Positions 55,997 through 62,644 are shown, counted from the first letter of the stretch. The stretch: DNA of 64,000 nucleotides from Thiobacillus sp. (GCA_016124745.1 WGNC01000013.1:2378-66377), one strand, 5' to 3'. A program made the numbers and translations. Notes: generated by a model from the sequence alone, not told the origin.

Positions 55997-57072
55997 CGCT
56001 TGGCCCCCTGATGCTCGACGTGGCAGGCACCGAACTCACCGACGACGACAGGCGGCGTCTCGGCCATCCGCTGGTCGGCGGCGTGATCCTGTTCAGCCGC
56101 AACTATCGCGACCCGGCCCAGTTGGCCGCGCTGACCACGGAAATCCATTCGCTCAAGCCGGCGCCGCTGCTGATCGGCGTCGATCACGAGGGCGGCCGGG
56201 TACAACGTTTCCGCGAAGGCTTCACCCGCCTGCCGCCGATGCGCACTTTCGGCGAAATCTGGAACGCGCATCCGCAGCAGGCCAGACATCTGGCGCGCGA
56301 AACCGGTTATGTGCTGGCGAGCGAGTTGCGCGCGCATGGCATCGATTTCAGCTTTGCCCCGGTGCTCGACCTCGACTACGGCGCTTCCTCGGTCATCGGC
56401 GACCGTGCCTTTCACGCCGATCCGCATGCCGTATTCGAACTGGGCCAGGCGGTGATGCTGGGGATGAAGGACGCCGGTATGGCGGCCTGCGGCAAGCACT
56501 TTCCCGGCCATGGCTTCGTAGTGGCGGATTCCCACGTGGACATCCCGGTGGACGCACGCACCCTGGCCGATATCGCCATCGCCGACCTGGTGCCGTTCCG
56601 CCTGATGATCGAGGCCGGCCTCACCGCGATCATGCCGGCACACGTCATCTATCCTGAGATCGACGCGCGACCCGCCGGCTTCTCGCGCGTATGGCTGCAG
56701 AAGCTGCTGCGTCATCAACTGCAGTTCGACGGCGCAGTGTTCAGCGACGACTTGTGCATGGCGGGTGCCGCCGTGGCAGGCGGCGTGGTCGAACGCGTGA
56801 TGGCAGCGCTCGAAGCGGGGTGCGACATGGCGCTGGTGTGCAACCGCCCCGACCTGGCCGACGAAGTCCTGGCGAACCTGAAAGTAGACTGGTCCGCCCC
56901 TTCCCGCGCAAGACTGGCCCGCATGCACGGGCATCCTCACCCGCCCACGATGACCCTGCTGCGCGAGTCGACGCGCTATGCCAATGCGCTGCACCATATC
57001 GCCGGCCTGGGTATGGATTCCGCCGACCTCAACCTGCAGGTCGATCCGACGGACTACTGCGGCCGTTCGTAG
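55993..57072 (+). CDS. nagZ: Beta-N-acetylhexosaminidase
   Basis: GGVILFSRN, VDHEGGRVQR, KHFPGHG...DSH, MPAHVIY, FSDDL.M. Confidence 0.95.
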   Translation: MTLGPLMLDVAGTELTDDDRRRLGHPLVGGVILFSRNYRDPAQLAALTTEIHSLKPAPLLIGVDHEGGRVQRFREGFTRLPPMRTFGEIWNAHPQQARHLARETGYVLASELRAHGIDFSFAPVLDLDYGASSVIGDRAFHADPHAVFELGQAVMLGMKDAGMAACGKHFPGHGFVVADSHVDIPVDARTLADIAIADLVPFRLMIEAGLTAIMPAHVIYPEIDARPAGFSRVWLQKLLRHQLQFDGAVFSDDLCMAGAAVAGGVVERVMAALEAGCDMALVCNRPDLADEVLANLKVDWSAPSRARLARMHGHPHPPTMTLLRESTRYANALHHIAGLGMDSADLNLQVDPTDYCGRS

Positions 57073-57172
57073 TCCGGATCGCTTTCCGGCAGCGCTTTCG
57101 CCGCTTCCGTCCTGATCGCCTAGTCCGCCCCCATCCATTGAACCCACCACGCGAAAGGACTTGCATGAACGC

Positions 57173-57203
57173 TTGACTTGTTATTACGAATCGTTATCAT
57201 TCG
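57173..57203 (+). promoter_or_regulatory. Sigma-70 promoter overlapped by a Fur-box-like palindrome (hemP)
   Basis: TTGACT(57173)-N16-TATCAT(57195); CGAATCGTTATCATTCG palindrome at 57187-57203. Confidence 0.75.
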
Positions 57204-57231
57204 CATGCATTACCTGCTGAGCGCATCCTCA

Positions 57232-57447
57232 ATGACGCAGACGAGCAAACCCGCGCGCATCGCCAGGCACCCCGACACCCCAGGCTCGGACCGGCTTTCG
57301 CTCGAACCGGGTCAACAGGCTGCGGCGTCAGGCGCCATTCCGGCTGAACAGTTGTTCAAGGGCGTGCAGGAAATCCGGATCCTGCACAAAGGCGACCTTT
57401 ACCGCCTGCGCATCACCCGCAACGACAAGCTCCTCCTGACCAAATAG
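57232..57447 (+). CDS. hemP: Hemin uptake protein HemP
   Basis: C-terminal LFKGVQEIRILHKGDLYRLRITRNDKLLLTK. Confidence 0.9.
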   Translation: MTQTSKPARIARHPDTPGSDRLSLEPGQQAAASGAIPAEQLFKGVQEIRILHKGDLYRLRITRNDKLLLTK

Positions 57448-57457
57448 GGAGACCGAA

Positions 57458-57655
57458 ATGTACATCTGCATTTGCCGCCAGGACACCGACCGGGACATCC
57501 ATGAAGCCCTGGCACAGGGCGCCTGCCGCATGCGCGACTTGCGCGAAAGGCTCGGCGTGAGTATGCAATGCGGCAAGTGCGCGGAATGCGCGCATACCGT
57601 TCTGAAGGAAGCCTGTGATGCATGCGTAAGCCCCGCATGCACGAAAGCTGCCTGA
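57458..57655 (+). CDS. bfd: Bacterioferritin-associated ferredoxin [2Fe-2S]
   Basis: MYICIC...LGVSMQCGKC; GGAG RBS. Confidence 0.9.
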   Translation: MYICICRQDTDRDIHEALAQGACRMRDLRERLGVSMQCGKCAECAHTVLKEACDACVSPACTKAA

Positions 57656-57795
57656 TGGTTCCCGGTCAAGATTCAACCGCTCACCGCGCAGGTTAAGAAA
57701 GCGCCCCCAGCCCTTTCAGCAATCCGCACCCGCCAGCCAACCCGTCGACTTCGGGCAAGCCAGCAGATTCTCTTACTGACTTGCAAGGAGTTGTC

Positions 57796-58041
57796 ATGAA
57801 TCGATCGCCGCACACTGAATCCGGCATGGGCAATCATGCCGACCTGATGGCCGGCGCCATTCACCATCTTCGCAATGCCATGGAAACCGGATCGCGGCGT
57901 TCATGCGCGGTCGCGTGCCTGCTGTTCGCCTGCCTTGCGCAGGACGAATCGCTCGGCGCGGCCCTTTGCGACGAGTGCAAAGGGCTGGGCGAATGCCTCG
58001 AGGGGCTGTCGGATCAGTCCGCATGGACCATTCAGCCTTGA
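57796..58041 (+). CDS. Small Cys/His-rich hypothetical protein (81 aa)
   Basis: AAGGAG RBS; 6 Cys including CAVAC and CDEC, plus an HH pair; lies within the iron locus. Confidence 0.6.
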   Translation: MNRSPHTESGMGNHADLMAGAIHHLRNAMETGSRRSCAVACLLFACLAQDESLGAALCDECKGLGECLEGLSDQSAWTIQP

Positions 58042-58130
58042 CTCAACACTTCACAACCCAGCCAGCCAACGGAATGCGTTTCTCCACTAGCCAGCCAATC
58101 CGACTGTCTACACATGAAAAGGGAGAAACC

Positions 58131-59579
58131 ATGCAATACAACCGCAACCTGAGGGTCGCGCTGATGCTGGCCGGACTCGCTGCCGCACCGGCCGAAGCCG
58201 CGGAGTCTGCAGTCGACCAGCAGTTGCTCTTGCAGGCCTACGAAAAGCTGCTGCAACGCGTCGATCAGCTCGAAGCCTCCAATAAAAGACTGGAAGCCGC
58301 CCTCGAACAGAACCCCAACAAGCCTCCGGTCGGAAACCAGACCGCGGAGATTGCCGGTCGCGAGGAAGATCTTGAAAACCAGTTACTGGAAATGAAGAAG
58401 CCCAGCGAATCGGGCATCGCATTCGGCGCCTCGATGACCATGGTGGCGCTGGACGCAGTGAGCGGCACCGTCGCGGGCAAGAATGACAGTGCGCTGAATT
58501 ATCTCGCCGACATCGAATTCGTAATTCCAGGCGATGCACTCGGCAAACTGACCAGTTTCGGTTACAGCACGTTCTTCGCCCACCTTCGCGCAGGCCAGGG
58601 CAACAGCCTCGACAGCGTTTACCCCACGCTCACCGGCACGGTCAATTCGACAACTTTCGAGCTCTCCAAGGGCGACGAATCCTCGTTCATCCTCGCGGAG
58701 GCCTGGTATCAACTGGGCATCCCTCTCAACGAGGACAAGGCCGGCCGGCTCGGTCGCGTCGAGATGACGCTCGGCAAGATGGACATCTTCGGTTTTTACG
58801 ACGGCAATGACATCGCCGACGACGAGACCGAGTTCTTCCTCAACAACGTCTTCGTGCACAACCCGCTGCTGGATTCCGGGGGCGATGTCACGGCGGACGA
58901 CTTCGGCTTCGCGCCGGGCCTGAACGTCGCTTACATCAATGACGTCAACAGCGTCAACCAGTGGAAGTTTTCGCTGGGCATGTTCGGTTCGGGCTCGGGC
59001 GCGGCTTTCGACGACAGTTTTTCCGATCCCTTCGTCATCGGCGAGGCCGACTATAGCGGCAACATCCTGTTCGGATTGCCCGGCACCTATCGCTTCTACG
59101 GCTGGTACAACGGCCAGGGCCTGGCCTACGCCAACGAGTTCGACGCCGCCACCGAAAGCCATACCGGCCTCGGGTTTTCCATCGACCAGCAGGTGTCGCG
59201 GCATGTCACCCTGTTCTCACGTTACGGCCACTCGCTCGACGGCCAGGTCAAGTTCGACTGGGCGTTCACGCTGGGTGGACAGCTTGGCGGCACCCCCTGG
59301 GGCCGGCCAACCGACCGTGTCGGCCTGGCCTTCGGCTGGCTGAATCCGAGCAGCGAATTCAAGGCCGCCGCCCCCACGCTTGACGCCGATGGAGACGGCG
59401 AACTGGACTTCGGCTTCACACCCGGCGGTGCGGAGACCCAGGCCGAGTTGTTCTACGCCTGGCAGATCAACAACAACTTCCAGCTCACGCCCAGCGTGCA
59501 GTGGGTCGGCCAGCCGGGCGGCGGCAGCTCGGCCGACGACATCGTGATGCTGGGCCTGCGCGCCAAGGCCGCGTTCTAG
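58131..59579 (+). CDS. OprB-like (carbohydrate-selective family) outer membrane porin with N-terminal coiled coil
   Basis: GGAG RBS; signal peptide; coiled coil; EAWYQL, GKMDIF.FYD.N..ADDE..FF.N.VF..NP, ELFYAWQIN...LTPSVQ, terminal Phe. Confidence 0.82.
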   Translation: MQYNRNLRVALMLAGLAAAPAEAAESAVDQQLLLQAYEKLLQRVDQLEASNKRLEAALEQNPNKPPVGNQTAEIAGREEDLENQLLEMKKPSESGIAFGASMTMVALDAVSGTVAGKNDSALNYLADIEFVIPGDALGKLTSFGYSTFFAHLRAGQGNSLDSVYPTLTGTVNSTTFELSKGDESSFILAEAWYQLGIPLNEDKAGRLGRVEMTLGKMDIFGFYDGNDIADDETEFFLNNVFVHNPLLDSGGDVTADDFGFAPGLNVAYINDVNSVNQWKFSLGMFGSGSGAAFDDSFSDPFVIGEADYSGNILFGLPGTYRFYGWYNGQGLAYANEFDAATESHTGLGFSIDQQVSRHVTLFSRYGHSLDGQVKFDWAFTLGGQLGGTPWGRPTDRVGLAFGWLNPSSEFKAAAPTLDADGDGELDFGFTPGGAETQAELFYAWQINNNFQLTPSVQWVGQPGGGSSADDIVMLGLRAKAAF

Positions 59580-59669
59580 GCGCAAACCATCGCTGCCATA
59601 TTCGGGAGGCCCGGCATGTTGGGGCTTTCGCATGCCCCTAAATTGCCAGCAATTCTGTTTACGCAAAGC

Positions 59670-59701
59670 TTGACTAAAAAATGAGAATGGTTATTATTAA
59701 C
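59670..59701 (+). promoter_or_regulatory. Sigma-70 promoter overlapped by a Fur box (feoB)
   Basis: TTGACT(59670)-N16-TATTAT(59692); GAGAATGGTTATTATTAAC (59683-59701) matches GATAATGATAATCATTATC at 14/19. Confidence 0.8.
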
Positions 59702-59742
59702 ATGCAATTCAAGCAACGCTCCAACTGCCCTACTTGATTCCC

Positions 59743-61683
59743 ATGCAAAGCGCTTCCGCCATCGCCCTCGTCGGCAATCCCAACGTCGGCAAATCCGTCC
59801 TGTTTCACCGGCTGACCGGCGCGTACGTCAACGTCTCCAACTATCCCGGTACCACGGTGGAGGTGGCCCGCGCGCCGGCCCGTTTCGATGCGGCGGTTGA
59901 CCTCGTCGACACACCCGGCGTGCTGACCCTGCCGGCCCGCAGCGACGACGAGCGCGCCACCATGCGGGCGCTGCTGTACGAACCGCTGCAGGCCGTGATC
60001 CAGGTGGGCGATGCAAAGAACCTGCGCCGCACGTTGACGCTGACGGCATTGCTGGCCGAACTCGGCATCCCCGCCGTGCTGGCGCTCAACATGCACGACG
60101 AAGCCAGCGCGCGCGGCGTGACCGTGGATGCGCAGGCGCTCAGCGAAGCACTCGCGATTCCGGTCGTGCCCACGGTGGCCACCGGCGGTGAGGGCATCGC
60201 GCAACTGACGCGCAGTCTGGCCGATGCGCGCACGCTGCAGCCACTGCTGCATTACGACGGCACGGCGGAATCGGCGCTTGCCGAGATGGCAGCGCGCATC
60301 GCCGATCTTGCACCGCATCCGCTTCTGACAGCACGCGGGCTGGCCATTCTGTACCTGGGGCAGGACAGCGAAGTCGAAGCCTGGCTGAAGGAGGCGACGG
60401 GCGACGCCTACACCGAGCTTGCCTCGGCCCGCGATTCTGCCCATGCGCAGGGCGTCACCCCTGCAGCGCTGGCGCACGAACGCGGCGAAGCGGCTGGCAC
60501 GCTAGCCACCCGCGTCACCAAACGCACCGCGCAGGCCAGCCCGCTGCTGGCGCACCGCGTCGGTCAGTGGATCATCCACCGGGTGTGGGCATGGCCGATC
60601 CTGCTCGGCGTGCTGTTTGCGGTGTACGAATTCGTCGGTGTGTTCGGCGCCGGCACGCTGGTCGCCCTGATGGAGAACGACCTGTTCGGGAATGTACTGA
60701 ATCCGGTGGTCACCCAGTTCGCCCACAAGTACATCAGCGTGCCCTGGCTGGCCGACCTGCTGGTCGGACAATACGGACTCTGGACCATGGGCATGACGTA
60801 CGCGCTGGCGCTGATTCTGCCCATCGTCACCACCTTTTTTATCGCGTTCGGTCTGCTGGAAGATTCCGGCTACTTTGCCCGGCTGTCCGTGCTGGCCAAT
60901 CGCCTGTTCAAGCTAATCGGCCTCAACGGTCGCGCCGTGCTGCCGATGGTGCTGGGTCTTGGCTGCGTCACCATGGCCACGCTCACCACGCGCATCCTGC
61001 ACAGCCCACGCGAACGCCTCATTACCATTTTCCTGATGGCGCTGGCGATCCCCTGCTCGGCGCAGCTCGGAGTCGTGCTGGGCCTGCTGGGCGGCATCTC
61101 CTTCTCGGCGCTGCTGGTCTGGGTCGTATCGATGGTCGCCGTGCTGATGCTGGCGGGCTTTCTGGCCGCCAAGCTGATTCCCGGCCGGCGCATTCCGCTG
61201 GTCACCGAAATGCCGCCGATCAGGCTGCCGCTCATGGGCAACGTCGCCAAGAAAACCGTGGGACGCTTGAAGTGGTACCTGATCGAGGTCATTCCGCTGT
61301 TCCTGCTGGGCACCCTGATCATGTTCCTACTCGACCGCTTCGGCGCCCTGCCCGCGATCATCCGCGCCGGCGAACCGCTGGTATCGGGCTGGCTGGGGCT
61401 GCCTCCGGAAGCCAGCGCGGCCTTCGTGATGGGATTCCTGCGGCGCGACTTCGGCGCCACCGGCTTGTTCGCAATGAGCCATCAGCTGTCCCCGATCCAG
61501 GCTGTGGTCGGCATGGTGACCATCACGCTTTTCGTGCCCTGCATCGCCAGCGTGATGATGATCATCAAGGAGCAAGGCATGAAAGTCACCGCCGCCATGC
61601 TGGCGCTCATTATTCCCTTTGCGTTCCTGATCGGCGGGATTCTCAACCATCTGCTGCGTGCGGTATGGGGAGCAGGCGCATGA
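59743..61683 (+). CDS. feoB: Ferrous iron transporter FeoB
   Basis: GNPNVGKS, NYPGTTVE, DTPG, LNMHDE; LEDSGYFAR, LGCV, AIPCSAQL, FVPCIAS. Confidence 0.95.
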   Translation: MQSASAIALVGNPNVGKSVLFHRLTGAYVNVSNYPGTTVEVARAPARFDAAVDLVDTPGVLTLPARSDDERATMRALLYEPLQAVIQVGDAKNLRRTLTLTALLAELGIPAVLALNMHDEASARGVTVDAQALSEALAIPVVPTVATGGEGIAQLTRSLADARTLQPLLHYDGTAESALAEMAARIADLAPHPLLTARGLAILYLGQDSEVEAWLKEATGDAYTELASARDSAHAQGVTPAALAHERGEAAGTLATRVTKRTAQASPLLAHRVGQWIIHRVWAWPILLGVLFAVYEFVGVFGAGTLVALMENDLFGNVLNPVVTQFAHKYISVPWLADLLVGQYGLWTMGMTYALALILPIVTTFFIAFGLLEDSGYFARLSVLANRLFKLIGLNGRAVLPMVLGLGCVTMATLTTRILHSPRERLITIFLMALAIPCSAQLGVVLGLLGGISFSALLVWVVSMVAVLMLAGFLAAKLIPGRRIPLVTEMPPIRLPLMGNVAKKTVGRLKWYLIEVIPLFLLGTLIMFLLDRFGALPAIIRAGEPLVSGWLGLPPEASAAFVMGFLRRDFGATGLFAMSHQLSPIQAVVGMVTITLFVPCIASVMMIIKEQGMKVTAAMLALIIPFAFLIGGILNHLLRAVWGAGA

Positions 61684-61928
61684 GCCCGACCGATCACATT
61701 GCCCGCGTCCCGTTGAGCTTCCTGCTGCCCGGTGTGCAGGCACGCGTGGAGGATATCGATGAGGCCGTCAGCCCAACCCAGCGCGAGCAATTGGTGGCCT
61801 ATGGCCTCGCCCCCAACCGTCCGCTTGTCGTGTTGCAGCAGCGGCCGATGACCATCGTGATGATCGACGAGGTCGAGCTTGCCCTGGAATGCAGCGTGGC
61901 ACGCCACGTCTGGGTCAAGCGACGCTGA
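61680..61928 (+). CDS. feoA: FeoA-family SH3-like protein
   Basis: REQLVAYGLAPN...LALECSVARHVWV; ATGA overlap with the feoB stop. Confidence 0.8.
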   Translation: MSPTDHIARVPLSFLLPGVQARVEDIDEAVSPTQREQLVAYGLAPNRPLVVLQQRPMTIVMIDEVELALECSVARHVWVKRR

Positions 61929-62017
61929 AATCGGTCCGGCTAGTGCGCGGGGTAAGACCTTCGCTGCGCATAAGCCCTACAATGACCTTCCCGATCCCGG
62001 GAGGCCTGTAGTGAATC

Positions 62018-62644
62018 ATGATGCGTTTCGACCCTGACTGCCGCGCCTGCCCGCGCCTGGCAAATTTTCTCAATGAAGTGTGCGCCCGTCACCCCGACTA
62101 TCATGCCCGTCCGGTACCCGCCTTCGGCGACCCCAAACCAGGTCTGTTGATTGTCGGTCTCGCCCCGGGATTGCACGGCGCCAACCGCAGCGGTCGCCCT
62201 TTCACCGGCGACTATGCCGGGGTGCTGCTGTATCAGACCCTGCATCAGTTCGGCTACGCCAGCGCACCGGAATCGGTGTCGGTCGATGATGGCCTGCAAC
62301 TCATCGGCTGCCGCATCACCAACGCAGTGAAATGCCTGCCCCCCGCCAACAAGCCGGAGCCAGCCGAGATCCGCGAGTGCAACCGCTTTCTCGCAGCCGA
62401 ACTGGCCGACGTGCCCGAGCAGGCCAGCATTCTGGCGCTCGGCCAGATCGCACACCAGGCGGTCCTGCGCGCGCTGAACCTGAGGCTCAAGGATTACCCC
62501 TTTGGCCACGCCAGCGACCACCGTCTGCCGGATGGCCGGCGGCTGGTCAGCAGCTACCACTGCTCCCGCTACAATACCCAAACCCGCCGTCTCACCCCCG
62601 AGATGTTCGCGGCGGTATTCACGATGATCCAAGCAAAGGATTGA
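62018..62644 (+). CDS. Uracil-DNA glycosylase, Fe-S type (family 5-like)
   Basis: CRACPRL, VGLAPGLHGANRSGRPFTGD, NAVKCLPPANKP, SYHCSRYNTQT. Confidence 0.9.
   Translation: MMRFDPDCRACPRLANFLNEVCARHPDYHARPVPAFGDPKPGLLIVGLAPGLHGANRSGRPFTGDYAGVLLYQTLHQFGYASAPESVSVDDGLQLIGCRITNAVKCLPPANKPEPAEIRECNRFLAAELADVPEQASILALGQIAHQAVLRALNLRLKDYPFGHASDHRLPDGRRLVSSYHCSRYNTQTRRLTPEMFAAVFTMIQAKD

Follow-up and report, generated by a model that had tools for sequence, protein, structure and literature searches.

An OprB-fold porin beside feoBA in a Fur-boxed iron locus of a Thiobacillus-like genome

Porins beside Feo genes in described systems

The passage of Fe2+ over the outer membrane is still largely assumed to take place "through porins". 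A Fur-boxed porin of the OprB family, encoded in the order porin-feoA-feoA-feoB2, was predicted to participate in ferrous iron transport in Geobacter sulfurreducens (Rodionov 2004, PMC545781). For the feoPABC cluster of Acidithiobacillus ferrooxidans, Fur binding was reported by electrophoretic mobility shift assay together with in vitro transcription (PMC1874648, PMC2631029), and feoP was found to be repressed by Fur in vitro (PMC1874648). In Acidithiobacillus caldus, feoP is unlinked from feoABC and retains its Fur box (PMC2631029). Here we describe a locus of this kind in what we call the window, a stretch of 64,000 nucleotides (GCA_016124745.1, WGNC01000013.1:2378-66377) from a Thiobacillus-like metagenome-assembled genome of 3.35 Mb and 62% GC. 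Six genes follow one another on the plus strand, in the order hemP, bfd, a gene for a small protein with six cysteines (the six-Cys gene), a gene for an OprB-fold outer-membrane porin, feoB and feoA. The genomic context supports well an iron or divalent-cation role for this porin, and its physical coupling to Feo is weak.

An earlier note on this locus proposed that the porin is a dedicated outer-membrane entry route for Fe(II), forming with FeoB a two-membrane uptake system that is independent of TonB. As a new idea this does not stand, for it is a rediscovery of a hypothesis published between 2004 and 2008 for G. sulfurreducens (PMC545781) and for Acidithiobacillus feoPABC (PMC1874648, PMC2631029); FeoP has been a genomic prediction since 2007. 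In gene layout, the window locus resembles A. ferrooxidans feoPABC (Quatrini 2007, PMC1874648; Osorio 2008, PMC2631029) in having an OprB-family porin beside Feo and Fur boxes that overlap the promoter, and the published proposal of an outer-membrane Fe(II) entry route is the same. However, the A. ferrooxidans porin gene is the first of one cluster with a single Fur box, whereas the window porin gene is the last of a separate hemP-bfd-Cys-porin unit and is followed by a feoBA pair that has its own promoter, the order feoB-feoA and no feoC. The published primer FeoP-3 for A. ferrooxidans feoP gave one chance match, at a place with no porin or feo gene. The G. sulfurreducens operon is alike in that an OprB-family porin with a Fur box adjoins feoAB; it comes from another phylum, is a predicted single operon, and lacks hemP, bfd and the direct repeat known as HPRE. 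The window locus thus shares with the FeoP type an OprB-family porin adjoining feo genes and a putative Fur box at the promoter (here that of the hemP operon), but does not form one operon with feoABC.

Outer-membrane channels for metals have been described outside the Feo context as well. MnoP of Bradyrhizobium japonicum is cited as carrying Mn2+ in proteoliposomes (Hohle 2011, cited in PMC9334652); going by that description, it is a divalent-metal outer-membrane channel that makes the proposed function feasible, its substrate being Mn2+. Fe-selective OprB-like porins, such as Slr1908, are cited for Synechocystis (Qiu 2021, cited in PMC9723758), and as far as they are described there they are likewise OprB-domain barrels implicated in inorganic iron uptake. 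When the window porin was compared with the NCBIfam porin models, including any iron-uptake-porin model (por_somb), none matched at E 0.01. Cyanobacterial iron porins carry an N-terminal SLH domain; Pfam found none in the window porin, whose N-terminus is a plain coiled coil.

The porin, its predicted structure and its genomic neighbours

The porin is encoded by the sole OprB-family gene of the genome and has the signal peptide MQYNRNLRVALMLAGLAAAPAEA. It matches PF04966 over profile positions 78-372 only. An AlphaFold2 model built from 95 homologues (predicted local distance difference test, pLDDT, 78.9) has an N-terminal helix at residues 30-59, a coiled-coil-like heptad region, and then a 16-strand barrel like that of Pseudomonas putida OprB (4gey), which was its top Foldseek match (E 1e-18, target-normalised template modelling score 0.71, 18% identity). 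By sequence, the porin can be aligned with OprB over the final ~160 residues only. The predicted L3 loop, which joins strands 5 and 6 (residues 219-259, IFGFYDGNDIADDETEFFLNNVFVHNPLLDSGGDVTADDFG), is the most conserved segment of the family, with a mean column conservation of 0.83; its net charge is -10, against a family median of -8 and no member above -5, and that of the barrel is -29. In the model, such an acidic L3 fits a cation-selective constriction. A further segment, TLDADGDGELDFG (window positions 59382-59408), has a net charge of -5 and is placed in the predicted extracellular loop L7; most family members retain it and some (P0065, P0109, P0115) have it deleted.

To describe the neighbourhood of the family, 80 further loci were fetched from species-representative genomes with the porin profile, and 82 non-redundant loci were scored over a 5 kb range by tblastn and by clustering of open reading frames with Pfam; 19 of the 30 commonest neighbour clusters could be given a name. 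At least one iron gene was present in 74 of the 82 loci, and in 58 of the 63 whose flanks were long enough. FtrABCD-type genes occurred in 53 loci, where the usual arrangement is P19, porin, cupredoxin, FTR1, polyferredoxin, and imelysin and/or di-haem oxidoreductase (DHOR) genes lay directly downstream of the porin gene in 13, so that 66 of the 82 had one or the other set. Other neighbours were hemP (26 loci), bfd (24), the bacterioferritin gene bfr (24) and TonB or ExbB (11-12). Only four loci had feoB near the porin gene. No sugar-transport gene was found among the 19 named clusters. The homologues are therefore not mostly linked to sugar transporters, the pattern that the earlier note had named as speaking against its proposal; in the well-flanked loci it is iron linkage that prevails. 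Of that proposal, the part that makes the porin iron-dedicated rather than a sugar porin is upheld by these counts, while coupling to Feo is not a property of the family.

The Pfam family to which the porin belongs is named for carbohydrate porins, and a carbohydrate porin, P. putida OprB, is also the best structural match. That the window porin itself carries carbohydrates is nevertheless very improbable and largely refuted by context: only the C-terminal portion aligns to OprB, identity over the structural alignment is low, the recurrent neighbours of its relatives are iron genes instead of the carbohydrate-uptake genes expected of the OprB family, and a Fur box is found at its promoter.

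A different substrate deserves more thought. The porin may conduct Mn2+, as MnoP does, or divalent cations in general, and stand beside Feo only because genes of metal homeostasis cluster. Several homologues of the window porin carry the JGI label 'high affinity Mn2+ porin', Fe2+ and Mn2+ would not be told apart by an acidic constriction, and of the proteobacterial metal porins cited here MnoP alone has had its metal transport shown biochemically (PMC9334652). We nevertheless consider this unlikely, because the porin's conserved neighbourhood is specific to iron (P19, FTR1, bacterioferritin, bfd, hemP and Fur boxes) and the frequent neighbour clusters showed no manganese transporter. MnoP is co-regulated with MntH by Mur, and no Nramp/MntH gene was found in this genome.

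In genomic context, the porin family is thus most often partnered by FtrABCD, described in Bordetella, Brucella and Burkholderia, and P19-FTR1 systems. Published FtrABCD systems are not known to have an outer-membrane component. In the genome of the window, none of the genes for P19, FTR1, polyferredoxin, imelysin and DHOR was found. Among cultured carriers, Simplicispira and Sulfurisoma have an Ftr-type operon with a porin of the window porin's clade, and in Dechloromonas and Azonexus the operon comes with a porin that is less closely related (35-39% identical).

A maximum-likelihood tree separates the porins into two clades. One has a core of 47 porins, all Ftr-linked, and the other comprises 22 porins that are variously linked to imelysin, cytochrome c peroxidase and Feo. 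The sister of the window porin is imelysin-linked (support 100/100), and so is the next branch out. Since the window porin nests among imelysin-linked sisters, its adjacency to Feo is derived. In eleven loci (L004-L006, L008-11, L016-17, L075 and L078), the genes after the porin gene encode an imelysin (PF09375), a di-haem oxidoreductase (PF06537), a second conserved protein and a Tat-signal protein, and this set recurs in the window porin's own subclade. A similar imelysin-type cluster in Pseudomonas is thought to act in iron uptake.

These relationships also allow the porin to be seen as a feeder of periplasmic iron processing, by imelysin and di-haem oxidoreductase or by P19/FTR1, which would take an iron species other than free Fe2+ and whose partner has been lost here. 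The prevalence of Ftr-type and imelysin/DHOR genes in the family, the imelysin linkage of the sister porins and the lack of all those genes in this genome are in keeping with such a loss. However, the porin gene is intact, retains its HPRE-like repeat and its upstream genes, and its product is 88-90% identical to those of its closest relatives, so that it appears to be under selection; moreover, the relatives in which it is adjacent to Feo are a small repeated group (L002, L003, L007). We therefore regard the loss of a partner, with a porin left serving another iron species, as rather improbable.

Fur boxes, HPRE-like repeats and coupling to Feo

Only two sigma-70 promoter-like sites occur in the region 56900-62200, one just 5' of hemP and one just 5' of feoB. 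At both of these predicted promoters a 19-bp Fur box lies over a -10/-35 hexamer, which is the arrangement of a Fur-regulated promoter. Boxes were scored by their mismatches to the 19-mer consensus GATAATGATAATCATTATC, and that of feoB is one of the three joint-best matches in the whole 3.35 Mb genome. It has the same sequence in L002 and a single changed base, at position 18, in L003. The hemP box stands out as a conserved footprint in the diverged upstream DNA of L003, L004 and L006, and a similar box precedes hemP in L007 and L088-L100; in related loci, the intergenic DNA around both boxes has diverged while the boxes themselves are kept. The Fur-box-like site GCAATTGATAATTATTATTGATTTC on another contig (C34:13626-13650), 76-100 nucleotides 5' of a gene for a TonB-dependent receptor of 704 amino acids, was used as a positive control of the consensus; two Fur-family proteins are encoded in the genome. 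The two Fur-box promoters claimed for this locus are thereby borne out, since the boxes overlap both promoters and are conserved in relatives. An Rfam search gave a single match, a sub-threshold PrrF on a Fur-box promoter.

The porin stop codon and the feoB ATG are 164 nucleotides apart. A terminator scan of the window found none between these genes, the spacer folds with a z-score of only -0.33, and transcription may read through from the porin gene into feoB. The feoA ATG overlaps the feoB stop codon (ATGA), which would couple the translation of feoA to that of feoB. In two relatives with 88%-identical porins, bfr lies between the porin gene and feoB and is followed by a terminator-like hairpin. 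In a 60%-identical relative, feoBA is convergent with the porin gene, behind a Fur box and a hemP of its own, and in a 78%-identical relative the porin gene is followed by imelysin and DHOR genes, with no feoB within 8 kb. The bfr genes lie at L002:1463-1942 and L003:6618-7109, and the hairpin has a clear T-run in L003 only. No bfr is present in the window locus; the sole bfr-like gene of the genome is a distant one (31% identity) on contig C19.

Viewed from the Feo side, the linkage is similarly sparse. Of the 80 loci whose FeoB is closest (70-92% identity), 79 have the order feoB-feoA, and 15 have a porin gene within 5 kb of feoB, three of them being of the window type. The other 12 belong to Dechloromonas and Azonexus and have an ftrA-porin-ftrBCD operon immediately upstream of feoBA; this operon is complete in 11, and in L121 P19 runs off the end of the locus. 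These 12 loci (within L105-L154; e.g. L109) form one large iron island each, with P19-porin-cupredoxin-FTR1-polyferredoxin, feoB-feoA, two bfr genes and bfd.

Among the families searched, no Fe(II) importer other than FeoB was recognised in the genome. Because the genome has this sole recognised Fe(II) importer and a sole OprB porin, the two probably work in series here, by default and not by conserved genetic coupling. That much of the proposed two-membrane Fe(II) system can be kept. A conserved coupling to Feo cannot, given the own promoter of feoBA and, in relatives, the intervening bfr and hairpin or the inverted feoBA.

A second kind of conserved element within the locus is the direct repeat AGCCAGCC, which precedes both the six-Cys gene and the porin gene. 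It resembles HPRE, a direct repeat 5' of haem-receptor genes in alpha- and betaproteobacteria (PMC9131926; PMC9241770). Published examples include those of Chromobacterium violaceum chuR (CCCGCAAGCCAGCCGACAGCCAGCCAGCG) and vbuA, the targets being TonB-dependent receptors for haem and viobactin (PMC9131926). When the bfd-to-porin region of five relatives was aligned, the repeat blocks were more conserved than the adjoining coding sequence, and both boxes of the repeat 5' of the six-Cys gene were invariant in the five related loci within a diverged spacer. The motif GCCAGCC is enriched 5.5-fold in the ~220 nucleotides 5' of porin genes (54 copies in 21.9 kb; background 0.45 per kb and strand). 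At least two copies occur in 22 of 81 loci, nearly all of them in the non-Ftr clade, and the element mostly lies directly after the hemP stop codon. A loose genome-wide search for paired GCCAGC boxes returned 26 matches. Of these, the two that belong to this operon were the only ones recognised as 5'-leader boxes of the CCAGCCAAC form; most of the other 24 seem to be inside coding sequence. Rfam has no family for the AGCCAGCC element.

As in the HmuP/ChuP systems (Amarelle 2019; de Lima 2022, PMC9131926), hemP comes first in what would be a Fur-regulated operon, and a GCCAGCC-type repeat is located in the 5' region of a downstream outer-membrane gene. The putative target differs: it is a diffusion porin here, and feoB in relatives, instead of a TonB-dependent haem receptor, and in this genome hemP has no genes for haem uptake next to it. 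Thiobacillus relatives whose gene order is Fur box, hemP, feoB, feoA have similar boxes just 5' of the feoB ATG; such boxes precede feoB in seven of the eight loci in which hemP is directly upstream, compared with 11 of the 70 in which it is not. HemP may therefore control feoB in these relatives. One or two GCCAGC(C/A) boxes lie 5-30 nucleotides 5' of the feoB ATG in most of the loci L089-L100. By analogy, these arrangements suggest that the genes under hemP control here are those of Fe(II) uptake and not those of haem receptors. An HPRE 5' of a porin gene or of feoB appears to be undescribed in the literature searched, where HPRE is described for TonB-dependent receptors.

With this in mind, one may propose an explanation of the locus as an iron-starvation island composed of two adjacent transcription units, each independently repressed by Fur; we consider this explanation as a whole probable, though with ample room for doubt. 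The first unit would comprise hemP, bfd, the six-Cys gene and the porin gene, and the second feoB and feoA. Upon iron limitation, Fur would leave both promoters, as the position and conservation of the boxes indicate. HemP would then act on the AGCCAGCC HPRE-like repeats 5' of the six-Cys gene and the porin gene and, if it behaves like HmuP and ChuP, raise the expression of these distal genes. The porin would be exported by way of its Sec signal peptide and fold into a 16-strand OprB-type barrel with a periplasmic N-terminal coiled coil, and with its acidic, conserved L3 it may form a cation-selective channel through which Fe2+, and possibly Mn2+, diffuses into the periplasm. FeoB and FeoA would carry Fe2+ over the inner membrane, a function that is established for their family, and Bfd would mobilise stored iron, as is established for its own. 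Porins of this family are usually partnered by P19/FTR1 operons or by imelysin and a di-haem oxidoreductase; as this genome has neither set, Feo would stand in as the partner by default.

Several points weigh against this explanation. The hemP Fur box is weak, with 6 mismatches, and 103 sites in the genome score equally well or better. An acidic L3 means cation preference and not Fe2+ specificity, and Fe2+ may also pass via general porins. Adjacency to Feo is confined to a few close relatives and may reflect the clustering of iron genes instead of function in series; the tree-nearest porins (L005, L006), as well as that of L004 (78% identical, outside the tree), have imelysin/DHOR next to them. 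An RNA fold for the HPRE finds no support from covariation, since RNAalifold on 20 copies gave a short GGG/CCC stem with almost none. Lastly, HemP proteins have been reported as DNA-binding activators, and as a repressor in Stenotrophomonas (PMC9241770). As both kinds of report exist, the direction and level of HemP control are uncertain.

In itself, the window locus varies a known theme only modestly, by a rearrangement specific to its lineage. The wider pattern is that one coherent porin clade seems to travel with three iron-import systems, Ftr, imelysin and Feo, and the survey names cultured carriers of such porins. It is tempting to go further and to regard this clade, with its acidic L3 and its N-terminal coiled coil, as the TonB-independent outer-membrane gate so far missing for proteobacterial importers of Fe(II) and inorganic iron, one that serves FtrABCD/P19-FTR1, imelysin-DHOR and Feo interchangeably, with HemP and HPRE controlling the Fe(II) route, through porin and feoB, in Thiobacillus-like bacteria; we put this forward tentatively and would not count on it. 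An HPRE at the porin gene, and at feoB in relatives, would make HemP/HmuP a broader regulator of iron uptake, not of haem uptake alone. The association of the porin clade with these systems and the extension of HemP-HPRE control to Fe(II)-uptake genes are both computational inferences.

Gene inventory and minor observations

The features of the locus are collected in Table 1. All six genes claimed by the earlier note proved to be real and co-oriented, as judged by profile matches and, for the six-Cys gene, by homologues. The claimed absence of a TonB-dependent receptor, a bacterioferritin and a haem transporter from the locus was confirmed too, the three TonB-dependent receptors of the genome all being on other contigs. 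The locus is flanked by housekeeping genes, acpS and nagZ upstream and udg and uvrC downstream. The closest public loci come from Thiobacillus and uncultured betaproteobacterial genomes, and the full stretch is present in a single sequencing run, a hot-spring metagenome; no RNA-seq run was found to contain it.

Table 1. Coordinates of genes and sequence elements in the locus, counted from the first letter of the window
Feature	Position	Strand	Remarks
hemP-operon promoter	57173-57200	+	TTGACT-16-TATCAT; kept in L003, L004, L006
Fur box 1	57180-57198	+	GTTATTACGAATCGTTATC; 6 mismatches; overlaps spacer and -10 hexamer
hemP	57232-57447	+	HemP/HmuP-family small regulator, 71 amino acids; PF10636, E 6e-16
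bfd	57458-57655	+	Bfd-like [2Fe-2S] ferredoxin, 65 amino acids; PF04324, E 3e-8
HPRE-like repeat 1	57732-57765	+	GCCAGCCAAC, 15 nucleotides, AAGCCAGCA; 5' of six-Cys gene
six-Cys open reading frame	57796-58041	+	81 amino acids; homologue clusters, no family; alternative TTG start 57781
HPRE-like repeat 2	58058-58098	+	CCAGCCAGCCAAC, 17 nucleotides, TAGCCAGCCAA; ends 32 nucleotides before porin ATG
porin gene	58131-59579	+	OprB-fold outer-membrane porin, 482 amino acids; PF04966, 90.4 bits (cut-off 22.9)
feoBA promoter	59670-59697	+	TTGACT-16-TATTAT; kept in L002, L003
Fur box 2	59683-59701	+	GAGAATGGTTATTATTAAC; 4 mismatches; overlaps -10 hexamer
feoB	59743-61683	+	Fe(II) permease-GTPase, 646 amino acids; TIGR00437; alternative TTG start 59734
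feoA	61680-61928	+	82 amino acids; PF04023, E 3e-9

Both hemP and feoB are single-copy genes in this genome. The feoB product scores 379 bits with TIGR00437 (cut-off 315.65) and also matches PF02421, PF07670 and PF07664; with an N-terminal GTPase, a Gate domain and a C-terminal domain in FeoB, and with FeoA, the pair has the make-up of a Feo system. No feoC was found in this Feo gene set. The Bfd-like ferredoxin has Cys4, Cys6, Cys38 and Cys41, as read directly from its sequence, and matches NF007803 weakly, below the cut-off.

In three contigs (L072, L076, L125), binned as Methylomirabilis, Chloroflexota (Ardenticatenales) and Bacteroidota, the sequences are of proteobacterial type, and the porin of L076 is nearly identical to one from a gammaproteobacterial genome (branch length 0.002). 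Mis-binning of these contigs is probable.

The six-Cys protein has no Pfam match even at E 10, no NCBIfam family and no signal peptide. It is narrowly distributed, with 56 homologue clusters at 59-88% identity, none of which has an informative name, and 47 of the 56 are 81 amino acids long. In an alignment of 26 sequences, Cys41 and Cys61 are invariant and the four further cysteines are kept in at least 90%. Its AlphaFold2 model has three helices (pLDDT 68.5), and a small cytoplasmic metal or Fe-S protein would be the natural guess. Its gene lies directly 5' of the porin gene every time in L003, L004, L006 and L007. A small open reading frame between hemP and feoB in L089-L091 resembled the six-Cys protein by eye but had no BLASTP similarity to it, and was rejected as another such protein. 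A helical protein of ~85 amino acids, 36% identical to the six-Cys protein and missing most of the cysteines, is encoded in about eight porin loci (L035, 43, 45, 52, 66, 69, 74 and 80; e.g. L074:12023-12277), and in the Ftr-type ones its gene lies 3' of the polyferredoxin gene. The six-Cys protein may thus be part of a wider family of small proteins of iron loci.

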